From positions 1 to 63,766 of the forward strand of contig CAYMJV010000005.1 in assembly GCA_964390545.1 (NCBI GenBank): a stretch of DNA of 63,766 bases, read 5' to 3'. The number at the start of each line of letters is the position of its first letter. Position 1 is the stretch's first letter. The notes under the pieces are model-generated. The model was not told the DNA's origin. It did not search any database and saw only the letters and a list, made by a program, of their open reading frames with translations. A program made the position numbers and the translations under genes. Source of the stretch: an uncultured Syntrophaceae bacterium (GTDB lineage Bacteria > Desulfobacterota > BSN033 > UBA1163). Of the stretch, positions 5,346 to 60,895 are shown one piece after another.

Positions 5346-8300
5346 TTATCCCGATGGATTTGTCTCAGCTCCCTTGGCCACTTCACGTTTCGTGTGTTTG
5401 CCAAAGGTTTTTTGGATCATCACATAGAAGAGCGGCGCAAAGATGGTCACCAGGAAGGTGGAGGTAACCACTCCCCCCAGCACCGCAGTGCCGATGGCCT
5501 TTTGGGCGCCTGCGCCCGCCCCGGTGGCAAACGCCATCGGCATCACGCCGAATCCGAAGGCCAAAGAAGTCATGATGATGGGACGCAGCCTCAGCTTCGC
5601 CGCTTCCACTGTAGCCTCGATCAGCCCCATTCCTTCTTCCACCCGGGCCTTTGCGAACTGCACGATCAGGATGGCGTTCTTGGTGGTCAGGCCGAGAGTG
5701 GTCAACAGCCCGATCTGGAAATAGACGTCATTGGGCAACCCCCGTAGAGTCGAACCGATCACGCCGCCGATGGCTCCCAGGGGCAGGGCCATCAGGATCG
5801 AAATGGGGATAGGCCAGCTCTCATACAGGGCCGCCAGGCACAGGAAGATTACCAGAATGGAAAAGGCATAGAGGGGGACTGTCTGAGCGCCAGCCTGCCG
5901 TTCCTGATAGGAAAGCCCGGTCCAGTCAGACCCGATCCCCTGCGGCAATTTCTTGACGAAGCCTTCCATGGCTTGCATCGCCTCGCCGGAACTTCTCCCC
6001 GGAGCCGATTCGCCCAAAATGTTTATAGATGGAAAGCCGTTGAAGCGCTCTAGCTTCGGAGAACCGGAAGTCCAGTGCCCGGACGCAAAGGAAGAAAAAG
6101 GAACCATCTTGCCCGCGTTGTTGCGCACATGAAGTCTTTTCAGATCCTCGGGCAACATGCGGTAGGGGGCGTCGGCCTGGGCATACACCCTCTTCACACG
6201 TCCGCCTTGAATGAAGTCATTGATATAGGCGCTGCCGAAGGCCGCCGAGATTGTGTTGTGGATGGAGGTGATGGGTACTCCCAACGCGCCAGCTTTCTCC
6301 CAATCCACGTCAATCCGATACTCGGGCATGTCTTCCAGTCCGTTGGGCCGGACCTTGGTCAAGACCGGGTCTTTCGCCGCCATGCCGAGAAGCTGGTTGC
6401 GAGCTGCCATCAGCTCGGCGTGGCCTAGACCACCCCGGTCCAACAACTGAAAATCAAACCCCTTGGACATGCTCAGTTCGACGACGGCTGGCGGCGGAAA
6501 GACAAACACCATGGCATTGCGGATTTTTGAAAATTTCCCCATTGCTCTTCCGGCCACGGCACCAACCTTGAGCTCCGGCCGGTTGCGGAGTTCCCAGTCC
6601 TTGAGCTTGACGAATGACATACCCGTATTCTGTCCCCGGGCGCCGAAGCTAGCCCCGGAAAGCGTCATGCACGATGCCACCGCATCTTTCTCGTCCTTCA
6701 GAAAATAGTCTTTGACCGCCTCCATGACCTTTTCGGTCTGCTCCAGGGTCGAGTTCGCCGGAAGCAAGACCTGTACTAACAGGGTTCCCTGATCTTCATC
6801 CGGGAGATAGGCGGTAGGCATCCGACTAAACAGGAAGCCTCCCGCTGCCACGATCAGAATAAATATAATCACATAGCGGATCTTCTTGGCAAGGGATTGA
6901 CCCACCAGTTGCAGATATTGATCTCTGGCCCGAAAAAAGAGGTGGTCAAACCATCTGAAGAACGGTCGCAGAAACCAGATGCCCCCCTCTGTGGCTTCAT
7001 GCCCCTTGGGCACCGGCTTGAGAAAGGATGCGCACAACACCGGCGTCAGGATCAAGGCCACCACCACCGAAAGAAGCATGGAGGCGATGATGGTTACGGA
7101 GAACTGGCGGTAGATGACCCCCGTGGACCCTGCGAAAAAAGCCATTGGGCCGAAGACTGCCGAGAGCACTAACCCAATGCCGATCAGCGCGCTGGTGATC
7201 TGGTCCATGGACTTGCGGGTGGCTTCTTTTGGCGAAAGGCCTTCCTCGCCCATGATGCGTTCCACGTTTTCCACCACCACGATGGCGTCGTCCACCAGGA
7301 GGCCGATTGCCAAGACCATGGCGAACATGGTCAGCATGTTGACGGAGAACCCGAAAAGCCCCAGCACCGCAAAAGTCCCCAGGAGCACCACCGGCACCGC
7401 AATGGTCGGAATCAGGGTGGCCCGCATGTTCCCCATGAACAGGTACATCACCAGAAAAACCAGCAGGATCGCCTCTAAAAGGGTCTTAACCACCTCGATG
7501 ATCGCCGCCCTGACAAAGGGCGTGGTGTCAAAGGGATAAATGACCTTCATTCCGGTGGGAAAGAAATGGCTCATCTCTTCCATCTTGGCCCTGATGGCCT
7601 TCGACGTATCCAGGGCATTGGCGCCGGCCGCCTGCCGAATGGCCAGCGCGGCGGCGGGTTTGCCATCGTATTTTGCGTTCATATCATAGAACTCAGTCCC
7701 CAGCTCTGTCCGCCCCACATCCTTGACCCGCACGATGGAGCCATCCGGGTTGGTGCGCAGCGGGATCGCGGCAAACTCTCCGGGTGTCTTGAGCAGGGTC
7801 TGGACATTGATGCTGGCATTCAAGCGCTGTCCTTCCACCGCCGGCGCCCCCCCAAACTGCCCTGCTGAGACTTCCACGTTGTAGGCCCGAAGTGCCGTAA
7901 TCACATCTTGAACCGTCATCTGGTAATCGGTCAACTTGTCGGGGTTCAGCCAAATTCGCATCGCATACTGGCTGCCGAACGTCTCCACCTCGCCTACCCC
8001 CGGCACTCGCGAAAGCACCTTCTCCAGGTTGGACTGGGCATAGTCCATTAGGTCACTGCTGTCCATACTGCCATCTTCTGAAATCAAGCCCACCATCACC
8101 AGGTAGTTTCGGGTTGACTTGCTCACCTTCACGCCTTGGCGCTGCACCACCTCCGGCAAACTCGCCATGGCGAGCTGGAGCTTGTTTTGCACCTGGGCCC
8201 AGGCCAGGTCCGGATCGGTGCCCGGGGCAAAGGTCAGCTCAACGCGGGAAGCACCGGACGAATCACTGCTAGAGGAAAGATACAGCATCTTGTCGAAGCC

Positions 8301-8513
8301 GGTCATCTTTTGCTCGATGAGCTGGGTTACGCTGTTTTCAACTGTTTCCGCTGACGCTCCCGGATAAAAGGCGGTGATGGCGATGGAAGGAGGAGCGATG
8401 GGTGGGTACTGCGATATGGGCAACCTATAGATCGCCATGGCACCCGCCACCATCAAAATAATGGCGATGACCCAGGCAAAGACCGGACGATTCAGAAAAA
8501 ATCTCGATAACAT
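5346..8513 (-). CDS. acrB: RND efflux permease, HAE1 (AcrB/MexB) family
   Basis: 1055 aa; MLSRFFLNRPVFAWV start; GLLVDDAIVVVENVER and KNAILIVQFAK proton-relay motifs. Confidence 0.95.
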   Translation of the reverse strand: MLSRFFLNRPVFAWVIAIILMVAGAMAIYRLPISQYPPIAPPSIAITAFYPGASAETVENSVTQLIEQKMTGFDKMLYLSSSSDSSGASRVELTFAPGTDPDLAWAQVQNKLQLAMASLPEVVQRQGVKVSKSTRNYLVMVGLISEDGSMDSSDLMDYAQSNLEKVLSRVPGVGEVETFGSQYAMRIWLNPDKLTDYQMTVQDVITALRAYNVEVSAGQFGGAPAVEGQRLNASINVQTLLKTPGEFAAIPLRTNPDGSIVRVKDVGRTELGTEFYDMNAKYDGKPAAALAIRQAAGANALDTSKAIRAKMEEMSHFFPTGMKVIYPFDTTPFVRAAIIEVVKTLLEAILLVFLVMYLFMGNMRATLIPTIAVPVVLLGTFAVLGLFGFSVNMLTMFAMVLAIGLLVDDAIVVVENVERIMGEEGLSPKEATRKSMDQITSALIGIGLVLSAVFGPMAFFAGSTGVIYRQFSVTIIASMLLSVVVALILTPVLCASFLKPVPKGHEATEGGIWFLRPFFRWFDHLFFRARDQYLQLVGQSLAKKIRYVIIFILIVAAGGFLFSRMPTAYLPDEDQGTLLVQVLLPANSTLEQTEKVMEAVKDYFLKDEKDAVASCMTLSGASFGARGQNTGMSFVKLKDWELRNRPELKVGAVAGRAMGKFSKIRNAMVFVFPPPAVVELSMSKGFDFQLLDRGGLGHAELMAARNQLLGMAAKDPVLTKVRPNGLEDMPEYRIDVDWEKAGALGVPITSIHNTISAAFGSAYINDFIQGGRVKRVYAQADAPYRMLPEDLKRLHVRNNAGKMVPFSSFASGHWTSGSPKLERFNGFPSINILGESAPGRSSGEAMQAMEGFVKKLPQGIGSDWTGLSYQERQAGAQTVPLYAFSILVIFLCLAALYESWPIPISILMALPLGAIGGVIGSTLRGLPNDVYFQIGLLTTLGLTTKNAILIVQFAKARVEEGMGLIEATVEAAKLRLRPIIMTSLAFGFGVMPMAFATGAGAGAQKAIGTAVLGGVVTSTFLVTIFAPLFYVMIQKTFGKHTKREVAKGAETNPSG

Positions 8514-8525
8514 CGTACGCCTCCG

Positions 8526-9863
8526 TTAATTCGATTTTTTGGCCGGCTGGGCCGTCTCTTTGGGTGCTGTACCACTTGTTCCACGATCCTGAAACGGGAG
8601 AACCTTTACAGAGGTGCCGGGCCGCACTTTTTGGACACCCTCAACGATCACCTGCTCGCCGGGCTTGAGACCTGAGGAAACAAGCCATTTGTCACCGATG
8701 GCTCGATCGACCGTGATCATCCGCTGTTGGACTTTGCTCGAGTCATCCACAATCAGGGCGACGGCATTCCCCTTCGGGTCGCGGGAGACTCCTTGCTGGG
8801 GGACAACAATTGCTCTATCGATCTCCCCTTCCTGTACAACGGCACGCACGTACATGCCAGGCAAGAGAATCTGTTTTGGGTTCGGAAAGATCATCCGGAG
8901 GATAAAGGATCCGGTGCTTGGATCAACCGTGACCTCGGAGAACTTCAGGGCTCCTTCCAGCGGATAGGGCGTGCCGTCTTCAAGAAGTAACTTCACTCGT
9001 GCCCGGTCGGTACCGGTGCCTTTGATCCGACCAGATGCCATGTTCCGTTTGACCTGCAGCAGGGTGGCACTTGACTGTGTCGCGTCCACATAAATCGGAT
9101 CCAGCTGTTGGATGGTTGCGAAGGCGGAATCTTGAAACGCTTTTGCGAGAGCGCCTACGGTCACGTTGGATTTTCCGATTCGCCCACTAATCGGGGCTGT
9201 GATCCGGGTGTATTCCACATTGATCTGAGCCGTCTTTAGCGCCGCTTCCGCCTGTGGGATGGCAGCTTCGGCCGCGGCCACTGCTTCCCGGTCGTTCTGT
9301 ACCTGTGCCTCTGCGACCCGTAGTGCAGCCTCGGCTACTTCGGCCTCGGTTACGGCCTGGTCACGCTGGCTGGCGGAGACGGATTTGCCCTTGAACAGCT
9401 CCTCGAAGCGCCAGCGGTTTGTCCGGGCAAGCTCCAGGGTGGCCCGCTGCCGCGTGACACTCGCAATGCTCGCTTCCAGTGACGCCCGCGCACGGTCTGG
9501 AGCCTTCTTCACGACAGCAAGGTTTGCGGCTGCATTGTCGTACGCCGCTTGAAAGGCGGCGGGGTCGATTTGATAGAGGACTTGACCAGCTTTCACATCA
9601 GAGCCTTCGTCGAATAGCCGTTTCTGAATGATGCCATTCACTTGAGGACGGATCTCCGCAACAAAGTAGGCGGATGTGCGACCTGGCAATTCGGTGGTTA
9701 GCACGACCCGTTCCGGCTGGACTGTCGCAATGGAAACCTCGGGGATGGCAGGCGGCGGAGCAGCCTGCTTCGAGCCACAACCAGACGTTATCAGTCCCAA
9801 GACAAGTAACCCCATGGCGGCAATTCGTTTGATCCTGTCATTGATTTTCATATAACACCTCAT
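8526..9863 (-). CDS. acrA: RND periplasmic adaptor (AcrA family), lipoprotein
   Basis: Lipobox ITSGC; EIRPQVNGII and ITAPISGRIG motifs; long alpha hairpin. Confidence 0.92.
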   Translation of the reverse strand: MRCYMKINDRIKRIAAMGLLVLGLITSGCGSKQAAPPPAIPEVSIATVQPERVVLTTELPGRTSAYFVAEIRPQVNGIIQKRLFDEGSDVKAGQVLYQIDPAAFQAAYDNAAANLAVVKKAPDRARASLEASIASVTRQRATLELARTNRWRFEELFKGKSVSASQRDQAVTEAEVAEAALRVAEAQVQNDREAVAAAEAAIPQAEAALKTAQINVEYTRITAPISGRIGKSNVTVGALAKAFQDSAFATIQQLDPIYVDATQSSATLLQVKRNMASGRIKGTGTDRARVKLLLEDGTPYPLEGALKFSEVTVDPSTGSFILRMIFPNPKQILLPGMYVRAVVQEGEIDRAIVVPQQGVSRDPKGNAVALIVDDSSKVQQRMITVDRAIGDKWLVSSGLKPGEQVIVEGVQKVRPGTSVKVLPFQDRGTSGTAPKETAQPAKKSN

Positions 9864-15562: not shown

Positions 15563-15663
15563 CCGTCCTCACCAGTTGACAATCCTTTCATCGAAACTAT
15601 ATGATAGCTGTATGGTCAAGTCAACCGATGATTCGGTGTTTGGGATGGGATCGGAGTGGTGAG

Positions 15664-37195: not shown

Positions 37196-38173
37196 TTGAA
37201 AAGATTCCTCATCTCCTTACTTGTTACCTGCATCATCCTTTTCATCCTATTTACCCAGATCTCCCTGAAAGGTCTCTTTACCCTTTTAATACAGATCGAT
37301 CCTTTTTGGGCGACGTTGGGATCCGCAGGTTACTTCCTGGCCACTCTCTTTCGTGCCCTTCGATTTCGATGGCTGATCCATTCGAAGGACATTTCAATCG
37401 ATGAACTCTTTCGAATCTCTGTATTCTATCATTTATCCCTCATGGTCCTTCCTTCCAAACTCGGAGAACTCTCTTATCCCTATCTCCTAAATAGAATCGG
37501 TGGGATCAGCATGACCGAAGGGCTGGCTTCCCTGATTGCTTCGAGGGTCTATGATTTTTTCATCATCCTGGTGATCTTTCTGTTCTCCTCTCTCGCATTT
37601 CAGAACCTTTTCAAGGTCAACCTTCTCTTTGTCCTTCTCCTTACCCTTCTCTTGATCCTTCTGATTCTCGCCGCCTTCTTCTATATGAATCGTCTCTTGA
37701 TCTTGATCTCTAATGTCTGCGGATGCATATTCAAGATTCTCCGAAAAGAAGAGAGCAAAACGGCCCTATGGGTCCAAAAAACAATTCATGAAATGTCAGA
37801 AGACTTCTATGCCATTCGAGCTAAAAAGACCTACCTCGCCGTTACTCTGACCAGCATCCTTTCCTGGTTTATGATTTTCTTAACGTTTGAAGCTTTTCTC
37901 TTGGGATTCGGGGTCGAAATCTCTTTCCTTAAAGTGCTCTTTGGTTCAACCGTTGCTGTTATTGCAAACGCCTTACCCATTGGGGGCATTGGCAACTGGG
38001 GAACACTTGAGGTGGGATGGGCTGCTGGGTTTCTGATGACCGGACTTCCCAAAGAGCAGGCGATTGCCACAGGATTCGGCGTTCACATCCTGATATTTAT
38101 CACCTGTGCTCTACTTGGACTGCTCAGTTGGGTGACTTTGAAAAAGAAAAAAGCCCCTCTCCGAACCTCTTGA
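37196..38173 (+). CDS. Lysylphosphatidylglycerol-synthase TM domain (flippase-like, UPF0104) protein
   Basis: Multi-TM; RALRFRWLI, PSKLGEL, LPIGGIGNWGTLE motifs. Confidence 0.8.
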   Translation: MKRFLISLLVTCIILFILFTQISLKGLFTLLIQIDPFWATLGSAGYFLATLFRALRFRWLIHSKDISIDELFRISVFYHLSLMVLPSKLGELSYPYLLNRIGGISMTEGLASLIASRVYDFFIILVIFLFSSLAFQNLFKVNLLFVLLLTLLLILLILAAFFYMNRLLILISNVCGCIFKILRKEESKTALWVQKTIHEMSEDFYAIRAKKTYLAVTLTSILSWFMIFLTFEAFLLGFGVEISFLKVLFGSTVAVIANALPIGGIGNWGTLEVGWAAGFLMTGLPKEQAIATGFGVHILIFITCALLGLLSWVTLKKKKAPLRTS

Positions 38174-38229: not shown

Positions 38230-38517
38230 TCAAACCTTTTGGGCAACATTTCGTTTCGAAGCCTTGAGAGGGTTCAATTTGAAGGTATCCTCTTTTACCT
38301 CTTTCTTCACGTGGGTGGCGAAATTGCAAGCTCCCTTTGCCCATTTGATAGAAGGCTCACAATAGGTCTTACAATAGGAACCCACCTCATAAGTCACCAC
38401 ACGGTCACATCCCTTGCAGGCTTCCACGATGGGATAGCATCTCCCACCGTTGTAGGAACAGCCATTCTTCTTCATGAAGATGCATTCCGTTCCTACTTTG
38501 ACAGTTTGACAAACCAT
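38230..38517 (-). CDS. PxxKW family cysteine-rich protein
   Basis: Cys-rich; EPSIKW motif and CNFATHVK; GGAGG RBS before MVCQ. Confidence 0.85.
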   Translation of the reverse strand: MVCQTVKVGTECIFMKKNGCSYNGGRCYPIVEACKGCDRVVTYEVGSYCKTYCEPSIKWAKGACNFATHVKKEVKEDTFKLNPLKASKRNVAQKV

Positions 38518-38777
38518 GGCAATCAACCTCCCCTCTTTATGGATTAATTTTGTAACTAGTTGAAATAATTAATTATTACAATTTCCAAAAAGAGCATAAA
38601 AAAAAGAGCTACCGACTAGGTAACCCATTTTGGTAAAAACCAAAACGTATTTAATTAATCTAGTATAATTTATGAAATTTGTCAAGAGAAATTGTTGAGA
38701 AATTTTTGACAGCTGAAAAACTACCTCACGCTCTCTCCAAAGATTTCTGGGCTTTTTCAGAAATCGAAAAGGGTTCC

Positions 38778-38805
38778 TTGACAATTCTCTGAAAACGGAT
38801 AGAAT
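38778..38805 (+). promoter_or_regulatory. Sigma-70 promoter of the SDR-spt-GNAT operon
   Basis: TTGACA-N16-TAGAAT. Confidence 0.6.
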
Positions 38806-38831
38806 TTTAAAATTTGAACAGGGAGAGATCT

Positions 38832-39812
38832 TTGAAATCATTGGTCACCGGAGCCACAGGTTTTATTGGAAGCCATCTCGTAGAGGCTCTCTTACAACGA
38901 GGGGATCAAGTCCGATGCCTCGTCCGGAACTTGAGCGATTTGAAGTGGCTGGAAGGTCTGCCCATTGAGGCGGTTCAGGGTAATTGTAATGACAAAAGTT
39001 CCTTGAAAGGCGCTGTCGCAGGAGTGGACCAGTTGTTCCATCTGGCAGGTGTGACCAAGACTGTTGATAAAAGAACTTATTTCGAAGTCAATGCCTATGG
39101 AACGGAAAACCTCATCCGGGCCTGCCTTGAACATAATCCTTCCCTCCAAAAATTTATTTATCTTTCAAGCCAGGCCGCAGCAGGACCTTGCCAGAATGGA
39201 GGGCAGAAGAAAGAGACGGATCTGTGCGAACCTGTCTCTCCTTACGGCCAGAGCAAGCGGATGGGAGAGGACCTGGCCCTCGCCCACACACACGAGTTGC
39301 CCCTTCTCATCCTCCGCCCTTCTGCAGTCTATGGTCCGAGAGATCGGGATATCTACACTTTCTTCAAACTCCTCTCTAAAAAGATCAGACCCTGTTTCTA
39401 CAGCCAAGAGCAACATATCAGCTTATGTTTTGTCGGGGATATTGTCCAAGCCATCCTCCTGGCTTCCGATAAGAAAGAAGGGAGCGGAGAAATATTCTTC
39501 CTCTCCGACGGGCAGGATTATCGAATGGAGGAAGTCAGCGATATTTTTGCCTCCGTCATGGGGGTGAATCCGGTCTGTATTCGACTTCCAGAATGGATGA
39601 TATACGGAGTGGCTTCTTTATCTGAATATCTCTCCAAGCTTACGGGGAAACCTGCTCTCCTCAGTCGAGGGAAGGTCGAAGAGATGGTTCAGAAAAACTG
39701 GGTCTGTGATATCACAAAAGCCAGAACGGTCTTGGGTTTCAAACCCGTTGTCTCTCTTGCCGAGGGAGCTCGATTGACCTTTGAATGGTACAAGAAAGAG
39801 AATTGGCTATAG
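38832..39812 (+). CDS. Extended SDR NAD(P)-dependent epimerase/reductase; candidate ceramide or 3-ketosphinganine reductase
   Basis: TGATGFIG Rossmann motif, YGQSK (YxxxK); the specific role is inferred from context only. Confidence 0.8.
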   Translation: MKSLVTGATGFIGSHLVEALLQRGDQVRCLVRNLSDLKWLEGLPIEAVQGNCNDKSSLKGAVAGVDQLFHLAGVTKTVDKRTYFEVNAYGTENLIRACLEHNPSLQKFIYLSSQAAAGPCQNGGQKKETDLCEPVSPYGQSKRMGEDLALAHTHELPLLILRPSAVYGPRDRDIYTFFKLLSKKIRPCFYSQEQHISLCFVGDIVQAILLASDKKEGSGEIFFLSDGQDYRMEEVSDIFASVMGVNPVCIRLPEWMIYGVASLSEYLSKLTGKPALLSRGKVEEMVQKNWVCDITKARTVLGFKPVVSLAEGARLTFEWYKKENWL

Positions 39813-39832
39813 CTAAAAAAGCGAGGTGGCCT

Positions 39833-41014
39833 ATGGACGTCTTTGAAAAATGCGACAAGGTCAATGAACAAATTAGAGAGGTGGTTGAAAGGGGTTACTA
39901 TTTTTACTTCCGCAAGCTCGAATCGCCCCAAGATGCCGAGGTGGTGGTGAATGGAAAAAGAGTCATCATGATTGGCTCGAACAATTACCTCGGTCTAACG
40001 AACCACCCTCGCGTCAAGCAGGCTGCCATCAAAGCCATTGAAAAGTTCGGATGTGGTTGTGCCGGGTCGAGATTTCTCAACGGGACGCTTGAAATCCACG
40101 TTGAACTCGAAAACAAACTGGCCCGCTTTTTCCGCAAGGAAGCAGCCCTCGTCTTTGCCACTGGGTACCAAACCAATCTGGGAGCCATTTCGGCTCTGGT
40201 GGGACGAAATGATGTGGCGATCATTGATAAATACGATCATGCGAGCATCATTGATGGGTGTCGTCTCTCTTTTGGAAAGGTGAAGAAATATCGACATAAC
40301 GACATGAAGGATCTGGCACGTACCCTCGAAGCAACCAAAGACAAAGGGAAATTGATTATCGTCGATGGCGTCTTCAGCATGGAGGGTGATATTGCTGATC
40401 TCCCGAATATCGTCAAATTGGCCAAGACTTATGGGGCCAGGGTGATGGTAGACGACGCCCATGCTATAGGCGTCTTAGGGGAAGGTGGAAGAGGGACTGC
40501 TGAGCATTTCGGTCTGGAGAATGAAGTCGACCTCATTATGGGGACCTATAGCAAATCACTCGCTGCCATCGGTGGGTTTGTTGTGGGGGCACAGGATGTC
40601 ATTAATTTTATCAAACATACTGGCCGCTCCATGATCTTCAGTGCCAGCCTCCCACCTGCTCTCGTGGCGTCCGTCAGTGAAGCCCTTGACATCATCGAGG
40701 AACAGCCACAGCTCAGGACCCAGCTCTGGAAGAATACTCACAGGATGCTCAAAGGTTACAAGGAGCTCGGCTATGATACGGGCACAAGCGAAACCCCTAT
40801 CGTGCCGGTTATCATCAAGGACAACTGGAAAACCTATGAGATGTGCAAACGTCTCTTTGAAGAGGGTGTCTTTGTCAATGCTGTCGTCAGCCCGGCGGTC
40901 CCTCCCGGAAGGGAACTGCTCCGCACGAGTTATATGGCTACCCATACCGAAAGCCAGTTGAATCGAGTTCTGGAGGCCTTCCAAAAGGTTGGAAAAGAGA
41001 TGAGACTGATCTGA
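39833..41014 (+). CDS. spt: Serine palmitoyltransferase (PLP-dependent alpha-oxoamine synthase)
   Basis: GSNNYLGL, GSRFLNGT, DDAHAIG, GTYSKSLAAIGGF, IFSASLPPA; these match SPT rather than BioF or KBL variants. Confidence 0.8.
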   Translation: MDVFEKCDKVNEQIREVVERGYYFYFRKLESPQDAEVVVNGKRVIMIGSNNYLGLTNHPRVKQAAIKAIEKFGCGCAGSRFLNGTLEIHVELENKLARFFRKEAALVFATGYQTNLGAISALVGRNDVAIIDKYDHASIIDGCRLSFGKVKKYRHNDMKDLARTLEATKDKGKLIIVDGVFSMEGDIADLPNIVKLAKTYGARVMVDDAHAIGVLGEGGRGTAEHFGLENEVDLIMGTYSKSLAAIGGFVVGAQDVINFIKHTGRSMIFSASLPPALVASVSEALDIIEEQPQLRTQLWKNTHRMLKGYKELGYDTGTSETPIVPVIIKDNWKTYEMCKRLFEEGVFVNAVVSPAVPPGRELLRTSYMATHTESQLNRVLEAFQKVGKEMRLI

Positions 41015-42153
41015 TGGATACCGATCGAATGTCAAACCAGGAACTCCATATTGAAGAGGTAAGAAATCGTCAGGATTTGATGACTTTTATCCGATTTCCC
41101 TGGAGGATCTATCAGGGAGATCGCTACTGGGTCCCTCCCCTCATCAAAGATCAACTCCAGAAATTTAGCCCAAACCATCCTTTCCGTTCTCATTCAGAGA
41201 TGACCCTCCTTCTCGCCTACCGAGGAGAGGAGGTCGCGGGAAGGATTGCAGGGATCGTTGACCACAGCTTTATAGAGTTTCATCAGGAGAAGACGGGTTT
41301 CTTCGGATTTTTCGAATCAATTCAAGACGCTCAAGTAACCGGACTCCTTCTGTCCAGCGCGAAAGACTGGCTCAGGGGGCATGGGATGGAGAAAATGATA
41401 GGGCCGATGAATCCCTCCACCAATGATGAATGTGGCCTCCTGATCGATGGGTTCGATTCCTCTCCTCGTCTCATGATGCCATACAACCCTGTCTACTATA
41501 ACGCCTTGCTTGAAGGGGCCGGTTTGAAGAAGGCCAAGGACCTCTATGCTTTCTTTATTGAGCAATCGACTTTCATTGCGGGACGTCTGAGCCGGATCGC
41601 TGCTAAATTGATAAAGAAAGAACCGGGCCTTCGGGTTCGCCCCATCAATCTCCGCCGCTTGGGCCAGGAATTAATGATCGTCAAGGATATCTATAATCAT
41701 GCCTGGAGTAGAAACTGGGGATTCGTCCCCCTGACCGAGGCCGAGATCGATGACCTTGCAAAAAATCTGAAGCCCCTGTTGGTCCCCGATTTAGTGCTCT
41801 TTGCCTATTGGCAGGATGAACCCGTCGGGTTCTCCGTCTCCCTTCCAGACTATAATGAAGTTCTCAAAAGGTTGAATGGGAAATTGGGCCCCCTTGGATT
41901 CCTCAAATTCCTCTATTTCTCGAGGAGGATCGACACCGTTCGGGTCATGCTTCTGGGCGTGAAACATGCCTTCCAAAAGAGAGGAGTGGAGGGGCTCCTC
42001 TATTACGAGACCTTTAAACGAGGAACTAGAAAAGGTTATTTCAGGGCAGAATGCTCCTGGATTCTCGAAGATAATCTCCTGATGCAGCACGGTATTGAAG
42101 CCATGGGAGGAAAACGTTATAAGACGTACCGAATCTACGAAAGCACTCTGTAA
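41014..42153 (+). CDS. GNAT-fold N-acyltransferase; candidate bacterial ceramide synthase
   Basis: FIRFPWRIY..WVPPL, GFFGFFE, GPMNPSTNDECG, AWSRNWGFVP, ECSWILEDN; TGATG overlap with spt. Confidence 0.7.
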   Translation: MDTDRMSNQELHIEEVRNRQDLMTFIRFPWRIYQGDRYWVPPLIKDQLQKFSPNHPFRSHSEMTLLLAYRGEEVAGRIAGIVDHSFIEFHQEKTGFFGFFESIQDAQVTGLLLSSAKDWLRGHGMEKMIGPMNPSTNDECGLLIDGFDSSPRLMMPYNPVYYNALLEGAGLKKAKDLYAFFIEQSTFIAGRLSRIAAKLIKKEPGLRVRPINLRRLGQELMIVKDIYNHAWSRNWGFVPLTEAEIDDLAKNLKPLLVPDLVLFAYWQDEPVGFSVSLPDYNEVLKRLNGKLGPLGFLKFLYFSRRIDTVRVMLLGVKHAFQKRGVEGLLYYETFKRGTRKGYFRAECSWILEDNLLMQHGIEAMGGKRYKTYRIYESTL

Positions 42154-42222
42154 AAGGACTGAGTGAGAAGCTATGAGGGATGAGTCGGACATTTGAATGA
42201 GTTATTGCTCAGTCCTCAGATC

Positions 42223-43089
42223 TTAGTACTCGTCACCTTTTTTGGGGTTCCACCCTCTGTACAGTTGAGGCGCGATGATCAATGACGCGATGGCAAACGC
42301 AACACCGGCAAAAAGATCAATGACATAGTGGTACCTCAGATAGACCGTCGAGAGGATCAACCCACAGATGATCGGAAAGAAAAGACAAGAAAGCAATTTT
42401 TCGTAGCGGTAGGCCAGATAAAGGACCATGAGCACAATCTGAGTATGGCCACTGGGCATGCAATCGCGTTTGTTATGTTCCAGGGCATTCAAAGTATTTC
42501 TCACAAAATCGGTAATCCATGTTCCCTCCAGGGGCACAGAGTGAAATGAGGTTAATGTAAATCGGGGTCCAATCGCTGGAAAGAGAATGTACCCGATAAA
42601 GGAGGCATAGTATCCAAAGGTTAATACAAAGATCGATTCATTGAATTCCAGCTTTCGGTTTTTTATGTAAAGGACAACCACGAGGGTGAGGGGAAGGAAA
42701 TAGTAACTCAAATAGGCCAAGGACATGACATCCGTAAACCAGGGAACAACCCACCTCTCCATCCAAACCGTAGGATGCACGCCAAACAGGAAGAGGTCGA
42801 TTTGTATTAGCCAGGAGTCGATATCCCGTCGGAGATACTGAATCAGATCACCGAGCGACTCGTAAATAAGGATGATGAATATCAGCGGTGAGAAATCGTT
42901 GAAGAAGGCCCCTCCTTTCCCCTTGCGATCAGAGGATATTTTCATCACAAAGAGAAGGGCCATCAACATCAGGTAGCGGAGGAGGAGGGAGTGCCAGAGC
43001 GGAATGTGCCCTTTAAAGATGAGTGTGAGGAGAATCAATCCAATCAAAAAGAAAAAGGTCAGTCCGTGAACGGGAGTAATTTTTCTCAT
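42223..43089 (-). CDS. PAP2 superfamily membrane protein, Aur1/IPC-synthase-like
   Basis: PAIGPR, MPSGH and LRYHYVIDL motifs; N-terminal IDxxLFG..P segment. Confidence 0.75.
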   Translation of the reverse strand: MRKITPVHGLTFFFLIGLILLTLIFKGHIPLWHSLLLRYLMLMALLFVMKISSDRKGKGGAFFNDFSPLIFIILIYESLGDLIQYLRRDIDSWLIQIDLFLFGVHPTVWMERWVVPWFTDVMSLAYLSYYFLPLTLVVVLYIKNRKLEFNESIFVLTFGYYASFIGYILFPAIGPRFTLTSFHSVPLEGTWITDFVRNTLNALEHNKRDCMPSGHTQIVLMVLYLAYRYEKLLSCLFFPIICGLILSTVYLRYHYVIDLFAGVAFAIASLIIAPQLYRGWNPKKGDEY

Positions 43090-45650: not shown

Positions 45651-45727
45651 TCTGGTCTTTTTCAGAAATCTCAAAATTATTCATTGACACTTTCTTTCAA
45701 ACCTTTATATGATAAAGCCATTCCAAT

Positions 45728-52233: not shown

Positions 52234-52318
52234 TCATTGGAATGATGGAATATTGGAAGGGTGGAATCATGGGGCTATATTCGACAAACCCAAAATTCCA
52301 TTCATCCACTATTCTGGA
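52234..52318. repeat. Periodic inverted-repeat element, GGAAT/ATTCC type
   Basis: TTGGAAT GATGGAA TATTGGAA GGGTGGAATC versus ATTCCATTCATCCACTATTC. Confidence 0.7.
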
Positions 52319-52354
52319 AAATTATATAACTTAAGAGATTTTGTTTCAACTAAC

Positions 52355-55240: not shown

Positions 55241-56272
55241 TTACCATCTGATCAGGCTGCTTCCCCAAGTGAGGCCTCCACCGAAAGCGGTGAGGATGAT
55301 CAGGTCTCCTTTGCAAATGGATCCGTTTCGCACGGCCTCGTCCAGGGCGATCGCCACCGTGGCGGATGAGATGTTCCCGTACTTTTCGATGGTAAGATAA
55401 ACTTTCTCGATAGGGACGTTCAGTCGCTTTGCCACCTGCTGAAGCATACGTAGATTGGCCTGATGGGGAATCACCCATTTCACATCGGAAAGATGGATGT
55501 GGTTATAAGAAGCTGCTTCTTCGGCAGCCTCTGCAAATCGTTTGACAGCCATGCGAACCGATTCATTGGCTTTAATCATTCTCAGAGTATGGAGTTTCTT
55601 GTCCACGCTTTCATAGCTAATGGGAGTGGTCTTCGACCCGCCCCCCGGAAGAAGGAGGTTTTGACCATTTGCGCCGTCCGTATGGATGTGAACGGAAAGG
55701 ATTTCGCTGACCTCCTTTTCCTTATGCTGCACCGACTGATGTCTTCCGGATGAATCAAAGGCCTGAAGCACGGCCGCCCCTGCTCCATCTCCCCAGAGAA
55801 TACAACTCTCCCGATCTGTCCAATCGAGGGTTCGACTCATGATCTCGACAGCAACGACCAGTGCGGTTTTGAATGTTCCACATTTGAGATATTGTTCGGC
55901 CACAGAAAGGCCAAAAATGAATCCACAACAAGCCGCGGTCACATCGAAGGAGACCGCCTTCTCTGCTCCTAATTTTGCTTCTAGCCAATTCGATCCCGCA
56001 GGACAGGCCGTATCCGGCGTCATGGTGGCCATAACGATGAGGTCCAAATCCTTGGCCGAAACCCCCGCCATCTCTATGGCCCGCAACGAGGCCTCCTTCG
56101 CAAGATCGGACGCGTTCACATTCGGCGCTGCAATCCTCCTCTCCTTAATCCCCGTCCGTTTAAAAATCCATTCGTCATCCGTATTCAGGATCTTCTCCAG
56201 ATCGAAATTCGAGAGGATTCTTTCCGGAAGAAAGGAACCGGTTCCTAATATCCCGATCCTTCTGCCATCCAT
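55241..56272 (-). CDS. fabH: 3-oxoacyl-ACP synthase III
   Basis: TAACCGF (Cys), PHQAN (His), GNISSA (Asn), FGGGLTWG. Confidence 0.93.
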   Translation of the reverse strand: MDGRRIGILGTGSFLPERILSNFDLEKILNTDDEWIFKRTGIKERRIAAPNVNASDLAKEASLRAIEMAGVSAKDLDLIVMATMTPDTACPAGSNWLEAKLGAEKAVSFDVTAACCGFIFGLSVAEQYLKCGTFKTALVVAVEIMSRTLDWTDRESCILWGDGAGAAVLQAFDSSGRHQSVQHKEKEVSEILSVHIHTDGANGQNLLLPGGGSKTTPISYESVDKKLHTLRMIKANESVRMAVKRFAEAAEEAASYNHIHLSDVKWVIPHQANLRMLQQVAKRLNVPIEKVYLTIEKYGNISSATVAIALDEAVRNGSICKGDLIILTAFGGGLTWGSSLIRW

Positions 56273-56353
56273 CAGCAAACTCCTTCTCAAAGATTTAAGA
56301 TTATTAATCAGTCCATAATAATAACTACATTGTTTTATAAAATCCCTCCTCAC

Positions 56354-56415
56354 CTCCCTTTTCCAAAGGGAGGAACAATACCCCTCTTTGGAAAAGAGGG
56401 GTTAGGGGAGATTTT
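56354..56415. repeat. REP-like hairpin cluster (CCCCTCTTTGGAAAAGAGGGG family)
   Basis: Related to 27916-27952, 59949-59988 and 63590-63640. Confidence 0.6.
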
Positions 56416-56513
56416 CAGAAGAATAAGTCTCCTCTATTATAGACTGATTAATATGTCTTACCCTTTCGCCCCTTCTTCTAAATCCTCAATGATCAATTAT
56501 CAATGATCATTGT

Positions 56514-57986
56514 TCATTGCCCATTGGTCGTTTGAGGGGGGTTGGGAGGATGAGTACCAGACCATCGGAGATGAAAGGGCAGGTAGAAAATCCTGAGATC
56601 AAAAGACTCCCCATCCCTCCGATACAAAAACAGCCCTTTCAGAAGAGAGACGCTCTTCACTCCATTCCATTTTTTAACACCGATCAGGTGAGCGACCTCC
56701 CAGTAGTCCAATCCCTCTTTCTCCATCTTTATGTACAATCCCCAAAGGAGATTGGTGGAAATCCCTTTCGGAGGATCCTTCTCCCAGCGGTAGATTCGAA
56801 ACAGGGGAAAAAAATTCCTTTCAAGCCCTTCTTCCTTAAATGGGAAAAGATAGAAGACGTTGAGGATCTCGTGACCCCCTTCTTCCCTTTCATAATCATA
56901 GATGGGCCAGATTCGAATGGATTCCCCTTTCTCTCTTCCCTGAGGACCCTCGCCCGTTCGTATGCGGCTGAATAAGATGCGATAGGTCGTCTCATGGAAA
57001 TCTGTCAGCCAGTCCTCCTCATATTGATAGAAGGGATAGAGGATGAAGACCCTCTTCGACTCTCCCTCTCTCACCTTATAACCATAAAAAAGGAAGAATC
57101 TCTTCCCGTAGAGGTTTTCCCCTTTGAAGGTCCGAAAAAGAGGCCAGGGCAGATCCCACTGTTCGAAACCTGTGCGCTCCTCTTTGGCATGGGAGAAGAG
57201 TGGCCACAGAATGGTCTTGCTGTAGAAATATTTGGATTCCTTTGAAATATAAAAGGGAAAAACCATCCATTCATCCGTCGGATCATCTGTATCCAATCCT
57301 TTTGTCTTTTTCACGAAGATGGGCCACAAAAGAAAGGCTTGCGTTGAAACCCCAACCTCCTCCTTTCTCCCGTAGATGGGCCAGATTCGGTACCCTTTCT
57401 TCTTCTCGCCGCTCGTGGAGGAGACAAAGGGCCAAAGGAAGTTTTGGGTACGAACGCCTTCTGAGAGCGAATCCGAATAGAGGGGCCAGAGATAAAAATG
57501 GATTTCATCCTTACCATATCGTTTCAGAAGTGTACCGAAAAGGGGGAAGAGACCGAAATAATCTTCTCTCTCTTCCGTCTCTCCAATAAAGAAAGGGAAG
57601 AATTGAAAATCCCATTTCTCCTTTCCATCGAACGTCTGATCCCTGTAGGAAGAAAGCGGGAAGAGGTATCCCTTTTCATCATCGCCCTTGATTTGATATT
57701 TTCCGAATGGATAAAGAAACTCTAATCTCTTCAGACCCTCGTCTTCATCCCTCGTCCAGTAAAAAAAGGGACGAAACCCCCACCCCCTTCGACCCGATTC
57801 CTTTTTCAAGTGGAAGAGAGGACCTAATCCCTCGGCCTCACTTATTCCTTCCACCGGGTCAGACGTATAATGGAAAAAGGGCCAGAAATTGATCGTGACC
57901 GGTCTCTCGCCTGCTAGGGAAGGAAAAGGGATGACGGAAAGAAAGAGGATTACCGTCAACAAGAAAAATTGCTTTCGGATTATCAT
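56514..57986 (-). CDS. Exported protein with about 19 aromatic-Pro-aromatic repeats (for example LWPLY, FFPFF)
   Basis: Signal peptide ending SLA; repeats spaced roughly 15-20 aa apart; directly downstream of mlaD. Confidence 0.8.
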   Translation of the reverse strand: MIIRKQFFLLTVILFLSVIPFPSLAGERPVTINFWPFFHYTSDPVEGISEAEGLGPLFHLKKESGRRGWGFRPFFYWTRDEDEGLKRLEFLYPFGKYQIKGDDEKGYLFPLSSYRDQTFDGKEKWDFQFFPFFIGETEEREDYFGLFPLFGTLLKRYGKDEIHFYLWPLYSDSLSEGVRTQNFLWPFVSSTSGEKKKGYRIWPIYGRKEEVGVSTQAFLLWPIFVKKTKGLDTDDPTDEWMVFPFYISKESKYFYSKTILWPLFSHAKEERTGFEQWDLPWPLFRTFKGENLYGKRFFLFYGYKVREGESKRVFILYPFYQYEEDWLTDFHETTYRILFSRIRTGEGPQGREKGESIRIWPIYDYEREEGGHEILNVFYLFPFKEEGLERNFFPLFRIYRWEKDPPKGISTNLLWGLYIKMEKEGLDYWEVAHLIGVKKWNGVKSVSLLKGLFLYRRDGESFDLRIFYLPFHLRWSGTHPPNPPQTTNGQ

Positions 57987-58001
57987 AGCTCTGAAGGGAT
58001 G

Positions 58002-59033
58002 TTAAAAGAAGATCCCGATGAGGGTCCCCAAGACGGTGATGGGCGTTTGTTCCTCAATGCTCTCAGCAGCCTTTTGAATCTTCTTCATCGTCTTCTCTGC
58101 TTCTTTCATCAACTGATCATCACTGACCAGTTTTCCCAGAGTCCCCTCCCCTTTCTCCACTTTCTCTGCAATCCCTTTCATCGACTGAATCGTGTCTTTC
58201 GCGTCTTGGTAGAGAGATTCATCCTTAACCAATTTGCCCAGAGTCCCCTCTCCCTTTTCAATCTTTTCCGAAAGATTCTTCAGGGTGTCAACAGCCTGTT
58301 TAGCAGACTCTGCTGCTTCCCTGGCCGTTTCCACTGTCTTCTTCGCTTCCTGATAGATTGTCTCGTCGGTAATCAGTTTCCCCAGGGTGCCCTCCCCTTT
58401 TTTCACCTTATCTCCGATCTCTTCAACCCTGGAGAAGGCATCTTTGGCCTTCTGGATCGTCTCTTTTGCATCCTTGCTCATGCCCGTCAACTGACTCGAA
58501 AATGTATTGAGGTTGTCAACCATCCTCTCTACTTTCTTCGGATCTACGGACTTTAATAGATCGCCTATGGGTTTTGCGATTTCTTTAATATCCTCCCGGA
58601 TGGCACCCATTTTACTCAACATCTGTTCAATATCGGTGGGGGGCTCCCCTTGCTCTATCTCCCCATTAGGCTCCACCCTTGGAAATACAGGTGTCCCAGG
58701 AGAAATTTCGACGAACTTCTCTCCCAGGAATCCTTCCGATTTAAGGTAGGCCTTTGAATCTTTATAAAGAACGATATGAGGTGGAACCCGAAACGTGACC
58801 TTCGCCCTTCCCTTTTCCAACATCACTTTCTCGACGTTCCCCACATGAACGCCAGCCACCCTGACTTCTGCACTTCGATCCAGACCAGCGCCTGAATCGA
58901 ATAAAATGTTCACCAGATATCCCCTCTCTTTTCCAATCGGAAATTTTTCAACCTTCATGGTGAGCAAGGCTAAAAGGAGGATACTGATGACGACAAATAT
59001 CCCAACCCATATCTCTGAACTTTTTTTCTTCAT
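58002..59033 (-). CDS. mlaD: MCE/MlaD family protein with extended helical C-terminus
   Basis: N-terminal TM, MCE domain (GL..SAEVRVAGVHVG, GFLGEKFVEI), three GEGTLGKL repeats. Confidence 0.9.
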   Translation of the reverse strand: MKKKSSEIWVGIFVVISILLLALLTMKVEKFPIGKERGYLVNILFDSGAGLDRSAEVRVAGVHVGNVEKVMLEKGRAKVTFRVPPHIVLYKDSKAYLKSEGFLGEKFVEISPGTPVFPRVEPNGEIEQGEPPTDIEQMLSKMGAIREDIKEIAKPIGDLLKSVDPKKVERMVDNLNTFSSQLTGMSKDAKETIQKAKDAFSRVEEIGDKVKKGEGTLGKLITDETIYQEAKKTVETAREAAESAKQAVDTLKNLSEKIEKGEGTLGKLVKDESLYQDAKDTIQSMKGIAEKVEKGEGTLGKLVSDDQLMKEAEKTMKKIQKAAESIEEQTPITVLGTLIGIFF

Positions 59034-59169
59034 CTTTATCCCCTCCTTATTCCCCTCACCCCATCCCTCTCCTCTGAGAAGGCTGTGTCATAATAGAAAA
59101 CACGAAACTTCTCATTCGACAGCCTCCAAGATGCCCAGGGGACAGGCAGGCGGCTGAGGGGAATTCAAC

Positions 59170-59943
59170 TTACAAGACCTTGATCGGGCCCTCCGATCTT
59201 CCATGGATGAATTGCTGCACAATAGGGTTCACGGAGCTTTTGATCTCCTCCGGGCTCCCGACCTCGACAATTTTCCCTTGGTAGAGCATGGCAATCCGGT
59301 CAGCAATTTTATAAGCGCTCGTCATATCGTGGGTGATGGCAATAGAGGTCATGTTCAACTGCTCTCTCATCCGTATGATCAGTTCATTGATGGCATCGGC
59401 CATCACAGGGTCGATTCCAGTTGTGGGCTCGTCGTAAAGAAGGATCTCCGGCTCCATGGCAATGGCCCTGGCCAGACTGACCCGTTTCTTCATCCCTCCG
59501 CTCAACTCTGCCGGCATGATATCCTCAATATTTCTCAATCCCAGAAGGGCCAATTTCTCAGTCGCGATCCTTCTGATCTCCTCGTCACCGAGCTTCTTGT
59601 GTTGACGGAGTCCGAAACCGACGTTCTCCCAAACGCTCAAAGAATCGAAAAGGGCGCCTCCTTGAAAGAGCATTCCAAATTTCTTCCGAACTTCATTCAA
59701 CTCCCGTTCGCTCAATGAACTGATCTCCTGCCCGTCGACATAGATCTCTCCCTCATCGGGCTGAATAAGTCCGATGACGCATTTGATCAGGACCGTTTTG
59801 CCCGAACCGCTCCCTCCAATGACCACCATGCTCTCCCCTTGCCGCACCTCTAAATTGACGCCGTGGAGAACCTCCTTCTCGGTAAAGGATTTAAAAAGAT
59901 TGACCACACGGATTTTTGGATCAGAATTCCTACCCATCATCAA
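59170..59943 (-). CDS. mlaF: MlaF-type ABC ATPase
   Basis: GGSGSGKT, FQGGALFDSL, LSGGMKKRVSLARA, YDEPTTG, THD. Confidence 0.92.
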   Translation of the reverse strand: MMMGRNSDPKIRVVNLFKSFTEKEVLHGVNLEVRQGESMVVIGGSGSGKTVLIKCVIGLIQPDEGEIYVDGQEISSLSERELNEVRKKFGMLFQGGALFDSLSVWENVGFGLRQHKKLGDEEIRRIATEKLALLGLRNIEDIMPAELSGGMKKRVSLARAIAMEPEILLYDEPTTGIDPVMADAINELIIRMREQLNMTSIAITHDMTSAYKIADRIAMLYQGKIVEVGSPEEIKSSVNPIVQQFIHGRSEGPIKVL

Positions 59944-59985
59944 TCCTAAAATCTCCCCCCCTTTGTTAAAGGGGGAGAGGGTGGA

Positions 59986-60765
59986 TTAAAACAGAAATGC
60001 TGTAATAAAATAATTTGAGATTAATATCGTTAGAGATGAGACAACAACAGCCTTGGTCGTCGCCCGGCCCACTCCTTCAGCTCCCCCTTCCGCTGAAAAT
60101 CCCTGATAGCAACTGATGGTGGCTATGATCATGCCGAACACAACAGCCTTCAGCAGGCCGCTATAAAGGTCGCTAAATTCCAGATAATTCCATGTTCTCC
60201 GAATGTAGATCGTCGGATTGGCTCCCAGAATTTGAACGCTCACCAGATACCCACCCAGAATGCCGATAACATCAGCAAAGATGACGAGCACGGGGAGCAT
60301 GATCGACGCAGCTAAGAATCTCGGAACGATCAGATATTTGATCGGGTTGGTGGCCAGCGTATAAAGGGCATCTATCTGTTCCGTCACTCGCATCGTTCCA
60401 AGTTCGGCAGCCATTGCAGAACCCACCCGGCCAGAGACCATCAATCCTGTTAAGACGGGGCCCAATTCCCTTGTGACGGACAGAGCGACGACGGTCCCTA
60501 CCATCGTCTCCGCGCCGAACCGTTTAAATCCGGTATAACTCTGTAAAGCCAGGACCATTCCTGTAAAAGCGGCCGTGATGATGACCACCGGAAAGGACCG
60601 AACACCCACCTCTTGCATCTGTTTTATTATTTCTCTCCCTTGAAGCGGAGGCCGAAAGGTCCAGCTCAGGGTCTTCGCAAAGAGGATCATGATCCGTCCT
60701 GCTTCCTCTGCGAACCGTATTGATTGAATTCCAATCCATCGAAACAGATTCAAGAGAACCCCCAT
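59986..60765 (-). CDS. mlaE: MlaE-type ABC permease
   Basis: RELGPVLTGL, AAELGTMRVTEQIDAL, GAEGVGRATT motifs. Confidence 0.95.
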   Translation of the reverse strand: MGVLLNLFRWIGIQSIRFAEEAGRIMILFAKTLSWTFRPPLQGREIIKQMQEVGVRSFPVVIITAAFTGMVLALQSYTGFKRFGAETMVGTVVALSVTRELGPVLTGLMVSGRVGSAMAAELGTMRVTEQIDALYTLATNPIKYLIVPRFLAASIMLPVLVIFADVIGILGGYLVSVQILGANPTIYIRRTWNYLEFSDLYSGLLKAVVFGMIIATISCYQGFSAEGGAEGVGRATTKAVVVSSLTILISNYFITAFLF

Positions 60766-60769
60766 CACG

Positions 60770-60895
60770 AAATGCAATGTCAAAGTCCAAAATCAAAATT
60801 CCAAATGAATGTCAAATATCAAAAATTTTCCAAATGATTTGAAATTTAAACATTTGGATTTCATTTGAACTTTGAACTTTGTCATTTGAAATTTA
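60770..60895. repeat. Periodic inverted-repeat element, CAAAT/TTTG type
   Basis: Same arm layout as 16853, 26578 and 49401; between alr and mlaE. Confidence 0.85.

Follow-up and report, generated by a model that had tools for sequence, protein, structure and literature searches.

A putative dihydroceramide operon and an Aur1-like PAP2 protein in an uncultured Syntrophaceae bacterium

Introduction

The closest described bacterial counterparts of the locus reported here are the ceramide genes of Caulobacter crescentus and Escherichia coli BL21, which encode serine palmitoyltransferase (Spt), a bacterial ceramide synthase (bCerS; CC_1154 in Caulobacter, YghO in E. coli) and the reductase CerR (CC_1164) (PMC9386255, PMC11087976, PMC11324152). 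Homologues of all three, again clustered, are found on contig CAYMJV010000005.1 (assembly GCA_964390545.1) of an uncultured Syntrophaceae bacterium of the Desulfobacterota. Next to them lies a gene for a membrane protein of the PAP2 superfamily, which resembles the fungal enzyme Aur1. The whole stretch of DNA that was analyzed, 63,766 nucleotides in length, is termed the window. With moderate confidence, this locus is read as a self-contained phosphosphingolipid pathway.

Transfer of a phospho-head group to ceramide has been described in fungi, in Bacteroides and in animals. The fungal inositol phosphorylceramide (IPC) synthase Aur1 (PDB 9ivc, 9vj3/9vj4) has a triad of H255, H294 and D298 whose mutation abolishes IPC synthesis, and a two-step mechanism through a phospho-histidine has been proposed for it (PMC13133130). 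Bacteroides thetaiotaomicron has an Aur1 homologue, BT_1522, which has been shown genetically to be a phosphoinositol dihydroceramide synthase (NF052609; PMC9246714) and which is found in an inositol-lipid cluster together with MIPS and PIP synthase. The animal enzymes SMS1/2 and SMSr (ceramide phosphoethanolamine synthase; PDB 8ijq) carry SGHT and HYxxD motifs, and they move a phospho-alcohol from a glycerophospholipid to ceramide (PMC7988496). In the literature searched, there was no account of the PAP2 subfamily described below, nor of a bacterial ceramide phosphoethanolamine or ceramide phosphoglycerol synthase, and for bacterial head-group transferases of this type it yielded BT_1522 alone. 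A 2024 PNAS paper on the lipidomes of sulfate reducers does not cover sphingolipids.

Sphingolipids of bacterial origin are considered widespread in both anoxic waters and sediments, and their share of the sedimentary lipidome may reach about 20% (PMC12619533). Anoxic sediments hold bacterial phospho-sphingolipids with phosphatidylethanolamine (PE), phosphatidylglycerol (PG), phosphatidylinositol (PI) and phosphatidic acid (PA) head groups, for which the producer enzymes are not known (PMC5572230). A four-gene block with an Aur1-like partner is a concrete and clonable candidate for the head-group step, and it may explain these lipids.

Layout of the locus

The ceramide genes and the PAP2 gene are arranged as follows:

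38778..38805, + strand: sigma-70-type promoter, TTGACA, 16-nt spacer, TAGAAT (consensus match 11/12)
38832..39812, + strand: cerR-like extended SDR gene, start TTG 38832 (mechanical ORF start 38814)
39833..41014, + strand: spt, start ATG 39833 (mechanical ORF start 39785)
41029..42153, + strand: bcerS/yghO-like tandem-GNAT N-acyltransferase gene, start ATG 41029 (the alternative, 41014, would overlap the spt stop)
42155..42219, no strand: stem-loop between the convergent GNAT and PAP2 genes, -24 kcal/mol, z = -2.9 against shuffles
42223..43089, - strand: gene for a PAP2_3 (Aur1/SMS-like) integral membrane protein of 288 residues (PF14378, 69 bits)

The initial annotation, made from the letters alone, had proposed a sigma-70 promoter followed by SDR, spt and GNAT genes, with a convergent PAP2 gene. 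Searches for open reading frames (ORFs) and domains confirmed all four genes, with SDR, AOS (the alpha-oxoamine synthase encoded by spt) and GNAT on the + strand and PAP2_3 convergent on the - strand. The promoter was likewise borne out. It is the best promoter-like site of the region, and its -35 and -10 boxes are kept in six relatives (L001, L002, L003, L005, L149 and L160), in which the other upstream sequence cannot be aligned. Sites with at least 11/12 matches to the sigma-70 consensus occur four times across the window, against 0.43 expected, and all four stand just upstream of genes. The other such sites are at 15576, before the ORF at 15601; at 45684 (+), before pyrF at 45728; and at 52349 (-), before secA, which ends at 52309. 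Tight spacing behind the conserved promoter indicates that SDR, spt and GNAT are one operon.

The TTG start of the SDR gene at 38832 is kept in eight of eight relatives, and the alignment favors it over 38814. The AOS likely starts at ATG 39833 rather than 39785, given that GAGGTGG precedes this codon and that it yields a protein of 393 residues, as in relatives. The initial annotation also reported that spt and the GNAT gene overlap by TGATG. This sequence is present at 41012-41016, but because most homologues of the GNAT are 374 residues long, ATG 41029 is the more conserved start and the two genes may not actually overlap. The GNAT protein has 374-379 residues, depending on the start. Downstream, a long and imperfect hairpin occupies the 69 nt that separate the GNAT and PAP2 genes. 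With no T-run after it, it does not qualify as a canonical intrinsic terminator, and it may possibly act as a two-way transcription stop.

This arrangement differs from that of the known systems. In Caulobacter and E. coli, bcerS forms a separate transcription unit, whereas the window has the three genes in one predicted operon. The E. coli BL21 cluster has the order yghO / acyl-AMP ligase - epimerase - ACP - spt. It includes an acyl carrier protein (ACP), an acyl-ACP synthetase and flanking LptF/G paralogues, none of which is found at the window locus. The second copies of lptF and lptG that flank the E. coli BL21 sphingolipid cluster (2989282-2997066; L083/L084) fit reports of Lpt paralogues that carry sphingolipids.

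The ceramide genes

In all comparisons run, the AOS of the window scores best as a serine palmitoyltransferase (SPT) of the Bacteroidota/delta-proteobacterial subgroup, which sets it apart from the Spt of Caulobacter and E. coli, both of the Rhodobacteria subgroup. It has the fold of pyridoxal phosphate (PLP)-dependent enzymes (Aminotran_1_2, PF00155, 208 bits in Pfam), and its segment GTYSKSLAA, which holds the GTYSKS PLP-lysine motif, aligns to GTFSKSLAS of Sphingobacterium multivorum SPT. The top NCBIfam model is the CFB-type serine palmitoyltransferase NF047600 with 571.5 bits, followed by KBL (433), BioF (407) and ALAS (277). Among PDB sequences, the best match is S. multivorum SPT (3a2b/8guh) with 457 bits, and the next class reaches 326 bits. 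The protein is 55% identical to S. multivorum SPT, about 39-42% to E. coli BL21 Spt, 37% to Kbl and 29% to BioF. In a small neighbor-joining tree, it falls in a clade with the Sphingobacterium SPT and cluster-linked AOS proteins of other phyla, with E. coli Kbl and BioF outside, and the bootstraps for these splits are moderate (65-73%). The tree was built without an ALAS sequence, so that ALAS is compared by score only. The initial annotation had asked whether the AOS would group with BioF or KBL; it grouped with SPT instead.

A dedicated ACP and an acyl-ACP synthetase have been described for the Rhodobacteria subgroup (PMC9386255). Because the window Spt lies outside that subgroup, no dedicated ACP is expected, and the lack of one at the locus, which had been pointed out from the start, is not a gap. 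In two syntenic relatives, the gene calls within 10 kb of the cluster include no ACP.

The GNAT has no match in Pfam or NCBIfam, even at E = 10, and some of its relatives match PF00583. Its AlphaFold model (pLDDT 92.9) has a tandem-GNAT fold, and the top PDB neighbors are tandem-GNAT acyltransferases (E 7e-14). It aligns end to end with E. coli BL21 YghO (35% identity over 376 aligned positions, E 2e-76; hhalign probability 100). E. coli BL21 yghO (ECD_02850) has been paired with Caulobacter CC_1154 as the acyl-CoA N-acyltransferase required for dihydroceramide (PMC9386255). The link to bCerS runs through YghO, whose orthology to CC_1154 is taken from that paper. The window GNAT is thus a bCerS/YghO-family protein and a putative bacterial ceramide synthase, and what had been proposed from gene order is now backed by full-length homology.

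The GNAT family is large, with 8,475 clusters at 50% identity (E up to 0.001). It includes AOS-GNAT fusion proteins of ~780 residues (P0248, P0277 and P0342). The homologues, in a set that includes P0241 and P0276, also comprise a tandem duplication (784 residues) and a PilZ-GNAT fusion (503 residues). The latter hints at cyclic di-GMP control of ceramide synthesis in some organism.

The SDR matches Epimerase, 3Beta_HSD and related families in Pfam. It has GATGFIG near its N-terminus, which fits the GxxGxxG NAD(P) site, and a YGQSK segment (YxxxK) that aligns to YAKSK of the E. coli protein. Over its full length it is 29% identical (E 2e-37) to the E. coli BL21 protein "epi", which is the CerR orthologue (PMC9386255). 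An SDR homologue shares the locus with Spt and GNAT in most loci that carry both. It is mainly this co-location that supports the SDR as a putative CerR-type 3-keto(dihydro)ceramide or 3-ketosphinganine reductase. No N-terminal segment resembling a signal peptide was seen in the window SDR, whereas CerR of Caulobacter is reported to be periplasmic.

The distribution of this core was surveyed by a genome scan, in which a 9-sequence GNAT alignment and one genome per species gave 80 loci. Represented among them are Thermodesulfobacteriota, Nitrospirota, Zixibacteria, Ignavibacteria, Bacteroidota, Gemmatimonadota, Acidobacteriota, Calditrichia, Binatia, Planctomycetota and others. In about 58 of the 80, across more than 15 phylum-level groups, the GNAT gene has an Spt-like gene as its immediate neighbor, and an SDR is usually present too. 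Clusters of Spt-like, bCerS and CerR genes have been reported in metagenome-assembled genomes (MAGs) from the Black Sea across 40 phyla, including Desulfobacterota (Ding et al. 2024, PMC11334938). Because the scan reproduces that distribution, the ceramide core counts as a further instance of a pathway that is already known and surveyed, and alone it adds little to metagenomic surveys. The MAG clusters hold the same three genes in a similar organism, and the element added here is the recurring PAP2_3 neighbor; PAP2, phosphoinositol and head-group genes did not come up in a term search of the main text of PMC11334938. The route had first been taken as uncharacterized in this lineage. Its novelty is lower than that, since both the Desulfobacterota clusters (PMC11334938) and a bacterial Aur1 homologue (PMC9246714) were already known.

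The PAP2 protein

The convergent gene encodes a protein that matches PAP2_3 (PF14378) with 69 bits against a cut-off of 27, and PF01569 with 37 bits. Its profile aligns to yeast Aur1 across residues 120-268, and this places H215, H254 and D258 on the catalytic H255, H294 and D298 of Aur1. The triad is invariant in cluster-linked PAP2 relatives from four phyla. The two proteins have the motifs FPAxxPxY, PS[GL]H and STxYLxxHYxxDLxxG in common.

Sequence features of the lipid phosphate phosphatases are only partly present. The C2 motif PSGH starts at residue 212, and the C3 region reads STVYLRYHYVID from residue 247, so that both motifs named in the initial annotation are in place. The phosphatase C1 motif KxxxxxxRP was not found in the protein, which has no "RP" dipeptide anywhere. 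In C3, for which the phosphatase pattern is SRxxxxxHxxxD, Thr replaces the Arg of phosphomonoesterases, as in Aur1; the aligned segment of B. subtilis PgpB reads SRVYLGVHFVTD, with SR kept.

The structure was predicted from a shallow alignment and is of moderate confidence (pLDDT 77.6, pTM 0.81). In a Foldseek search, its top two PDB matches are both Aur1 (9ivc_A and 9vj4_A), with TMq 0.59-0.60 over 257-265 columns. SMSr, LpxE and PgpB trail with TM values of 0.35-0.38 on the query. SMSr itself, at TM 0.36, is a much weaker match than Aur1, although the SMS enzymes are like the window protein in their motifs and in the proposed phospho-alcohol transfer. The protein is thus like Aur1 in fold, triad, motifs and lack of a C1 motif; it differs in length (288 residues against 401) and is 18% identical. 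To our knowledge, no Kei1 partner exists in bacteria. BT_1522 belongs to the same superfamily and has the same predicted chemistry, but it is of a different subfamily, and it accompanies inositol-lipid genes whereas the window protein accompanies ceramide genes. Some PAP2 relatives match PAP2_C.

Linkage of the PAP2 gene to ceramide genes

The 82 genome loci examined for this purpose were fetched through the GNAT, a choice that favors the cluster without favoring PAP2. The PAP2 profile gives 16 hits in them, plus a truncated one in L006. All lie 0-555 nt from a ceramide gene, and none is found elsewhere in the flanks. The genes form same-strand operons in Acidobacteriota (SDR-PAP2-GNAT-SPT, L036) and in Eisenbacteria (SPT-GNAT-SDR-PAP2, L031), are convergent as in the window in L018, and include PAP2 also in the Nitrospiraceae locus L007. 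The genes that flank the PAP2-containing blocks of L036, L031 and others are unrelated to one another. Nitrospirota, Acidobacteriota, Eisenbacteria, Gemmatimonadota and unclassified MAGs all show the adjacency, with differing order, orientation and flanks. Overall, PAP2 relatives are found next to or within the ceramide operon in six or more phylum-level groups. Linkage of PAP2 to spt in other genomes, which had been proposed as a check, is thus found.

A second, query-independent sample consisted of 80 metagenomic contigs fetched through the PAP2 motifs themselves. A ceramide gene is present on 28 of them. In a tree of 94 PAP2 sequences, ceramide-linked members occur in at least seven clades, and within the clade of the window all evaluable members are linked except L134, in which a transposase gene lies beside the PAP2 gene. 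Linkage of PAP2 to ceramide genes is widespread and recurrent, far beyond inherited synteny, and it is not universal. A homologue search with a cross-phylum PAP2 profile again gave only the Desulfobacterota-type sequences that were obtained before.

Related arrangements were seen beyond this subfamily. A second, more distant PAP2_3 subgroup (AAFPSSHV, YGG[FY]HYAxD) is encoded directly after SPT-GNAT-SDR, in the same orientation, in Eisenbacteria, Gemmatimonadota and an unclassified MAG (L031 12307-13392, L060, L021, L065, L067 and L032). In one metagenomic clade, a CerR-like SDR and PAP2 form an adjacent same-strand pair, with no Spt or GNAT within several kb (L098 1037-2943, L102 3258-5218, L093, L109, L117 and L122). 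At L161 (7983-10257), the gene that comes after a PAP2 relative, on the same strand, encodes an AOS of another kind (37% identity to the window Spt), and neither a GNAT nor an SDR gene is close by.

Proposed pathway

The steps to dihydroceramide are proposed from homology to genetically characterized genes, and their enzymology would be as follows. Spt would form 3-ketosphinganine by condensing serine and an acyl thioester; the donor is probably acyl-CoA or a housekeeping acyl-ACP, given that this Spt subgroup has no dedicated ACP. The YghO/bCerS-type tandem GNAT would then N-acylate the long-chain base, and the CerR-like SDR would reduce the 3-keto group to give dihydroceramide. For Caulobacter, it is debated whether acylation or reduction comes first (PMC11087976).

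On the evidence of fold, motifs and neighborhood, the PAP2 protein is probably a ceramide phospho-head-group transferase, in which the His-His-Asp triad would act as in Aur1. H254, activated by D258, would attack the phosphodiester of a glycerophospholipid, so that diacylglycerol leaves and a phospho-histidine intermediate forms. H215 would then activate the C1 hydroxyl of ceramide, which takes the phospho-alcohol. Such bacteria usually have PE and PG as their bulk phospholipids, and on these general grounds phosphoethanolamine or phosphoglycerol is our guess for the head group.

Counting of positive-inside charges with strict loop boundaries was not decisive for the topology of the window protein. 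As in other PAP2 enzymes, its active site probably faces the periplasm, so that ceramide would need to be flipped beforehand, and the LPG_synthase_TM protein encoded upstream is a speculative candidate for this step.

The initial annotation had suggested that the organism makes dihydroceramide and may add a phospho-head group by Aur1-like chemistry. This is now supported by homology, triad, fold and linkage. An inositol head group is not supported: no inositol-lipid genes (MIPS or PI(P) synthase) are seen among the larger ORFs of the window, which include only a generic inositol-monophosphatase-family gene, and the flanks of PAP2-containing clusters from other phyla hold no head-group precursor genes.

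A wider proposal can be put forward tentatively. The PAP2_3 subfamily marked by D[CA][FM]PSGHT and TVYLRYHY could be the missing bacterial ceramide phosphoethanolamine/phosphoglycerol synthase; together with spt, bcerS and cerR it could form a portable four-gene phosphosphingolipid module of uncultured anaerobes in at least six phyla, and be the source of the PE-, PG- and PI-sphingolipids of anoxic and heated sediments. If this were confirmed, the pair of PAP2 motifs could be used as a metagenomic marker of phosphosphingolipid producers.

Contrary evidence and alternative explanations

Several observations weigh against a phosphosphingolipid pathway at this locus, in addition to the lack of inositol-lipid genes among the larger ORFs of the window. 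The sequence similarity of the PAP2 protein to Aur1 is weak (E 5.6, not significant alone), and against the Bacteroides phosphoinositol dihydroceramide synthase model NF052609 it reaches 24 bits, far from the cut-off of 480. Because both sequence thresholds failed, it is treated as a separate subfamily and not as an orthologue of Aur1 or BT_1522. The Foldseek E-value to Aur1 is 1.5e-3, and the model has low confidence in loops 174-186 and 205-212, beside the active site. The AOS falls below the NF047600 equivalog cut-off of 640 bits. For the SDR, 29% similarity is typical of any extended SDR, and the best NCBIfam match is HpnA, far below the HpnA cut-off. Where metagenomic PAP2 loci have at least 2.5 kb on both flanks, 10 of 23 are linked to a ceramide gene and 13 are not; the neighbors of the unlinked genes include truB, DHH, mur-ligase, two-component and other unrelated genes, and one coherent PAP2 clade is consistently unlinked, beside truB/DHH. 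Sphingolipid genes are scattered in Bacteroidota (PMC11334938), and for this reason genes that are not adjacent may still belong to one pathway. Finally, the Black Sea lipidomics that implicates Desulfobacterota found ceramides, 1-deoxy- and sulfono-ceramides, and no phospho-sphingolipids (PMC11334938).

The alternative that survives best accepts the ceramide core and takes the PAP2 protein to be a hydrolase, such as a lipid phosphate phosphatase or a phospholipase-C-like enzyme, which would trim or recycle phosphate from ceramide-1-phosphate, phosphatidylglycerol phosphate, C55-PP or lipid A phosphate. Bacterial PAP2 proteins are mostly phosphatases, and over half of the well-flanked relatives lie away from ceramide genes. 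There are weak matches to LpxE (E 5e-4) and B. subtilis PgpB (E 0.14), both of which are also among the fold matches, and hydrolysis of phospholipids without ceramide is possible for SMS-family enzymes (PMC7988496). Against this stand the absent C1 motif and the change of the C3 Arg to Thr exactly as in Aur1, a PAP2_3 score well above that of PF01569, a full-length fold match to Aur1 (TM 0.6) that LpxE and PgpB do not approach, and the embedding of the gene in ceramide operons of several phyla. A hydrolase is considered unlikely.

It is more improbable that the AOS, GNAT and SDR make a sphingolipid-like lipid from an amino acid other than serine, candidates being 1-deoxyceramide from alanine and a capnine/sulfonolipid-type product from cysteate, in which case the PAP2 protein would have no C1 hydroxyl acceptor and would act on another substrate. 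Correlations between lipids and MAGs tie Desulfobacterota to 1-deoxy- and sulfono-1-deoxyceramides (PMC11334938), Spt lies under its equivalog cut-off, and the structure of cysteate-C-fatty acyltransferase is a clear homologue of the AOS at 275 bits. The SPT match, at 457 bits and 55% identity, is far stronger than that, and the recurring PAP2_3 partner makes sense only with a free hydroxyl acceptor. SPTs that produce 1-deoxy bases usually use serine too.

Adjacency as a mere relic of synteny, with PAP2 no more than a neighbor of proS in this lineage, is very improbable: the closest relatives do share the neighborhood from secA via argJ, pyrF and proS through PAP2 and the cluster, and because this whole region is syntenic adjacency within the lineage alone proves nothing, but the recurrence across phyla with differing order, orientation and flanks, and the scatter of linked members over the PAP2 tree, largely refute it.

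Other features of the window

Upstream of the ceramide operon lies one further membrane protein gene:

37196..38173, + strand: LPG_synthase_TM / "flippase-like" membrane protein (PF03706, 118 bits; TIGR00374)

The initial annotation had drawn attention to this gene, which is present as described, but its link to the cluster does not extend beyond close relatives. It lies near the cluster only in L001-L003 and L149, and when it was sought in all 82 genome loci it was found there only in three close relatives. A conserved partnership with the ceramide cluster was accordingly rejected. The sole hint that the LPG_synthase_TM and PAP2 genes travel together comes from L134 (5767-10212), in which they are 1.2 kb apart. 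The order there is LPG_synthase_TM, DUF3108, PAP2 (58% identical to that of the window) and a DUF772 transposase. Ceramide genes are absent for 8 kb around, and L134 may be a rearranged locus. A role for the LPG_synthase_TM protein as an accessory of the cluster is weakly indicated and suggestive at most. In E. coli, ybhN of the LPG_synthase_TM family adjoins the cardiolipin synthase gene clsB (L086 45535-47732).

Between the flippase-like gene and the operon is a gene for a cysteine-rich PxxKW / DUF6811 protein of 98 residues (38230-38526, -), which has the divergent promoter region in common with the operon. Homologues in L001-L005 are 83-95% identical, and the position is the same in L001.

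In the region 55241-60783 (-), a FabH-like ketoacyl-ACP synthase III gene is found at 55241-56353, and an MlaD-family gene and an ABC-transporter ATPase gene, possibly for Mla-type lipid transport, lie 13-17 kb downstream of the ceramide genes. At the other end of the window, an AcrB-type RND pump and its membrane-fusion partner (5346-9863, -) have a G+C content of 0.56-0.57, against about 0.48 elsewhere, and may be acquired DNA.

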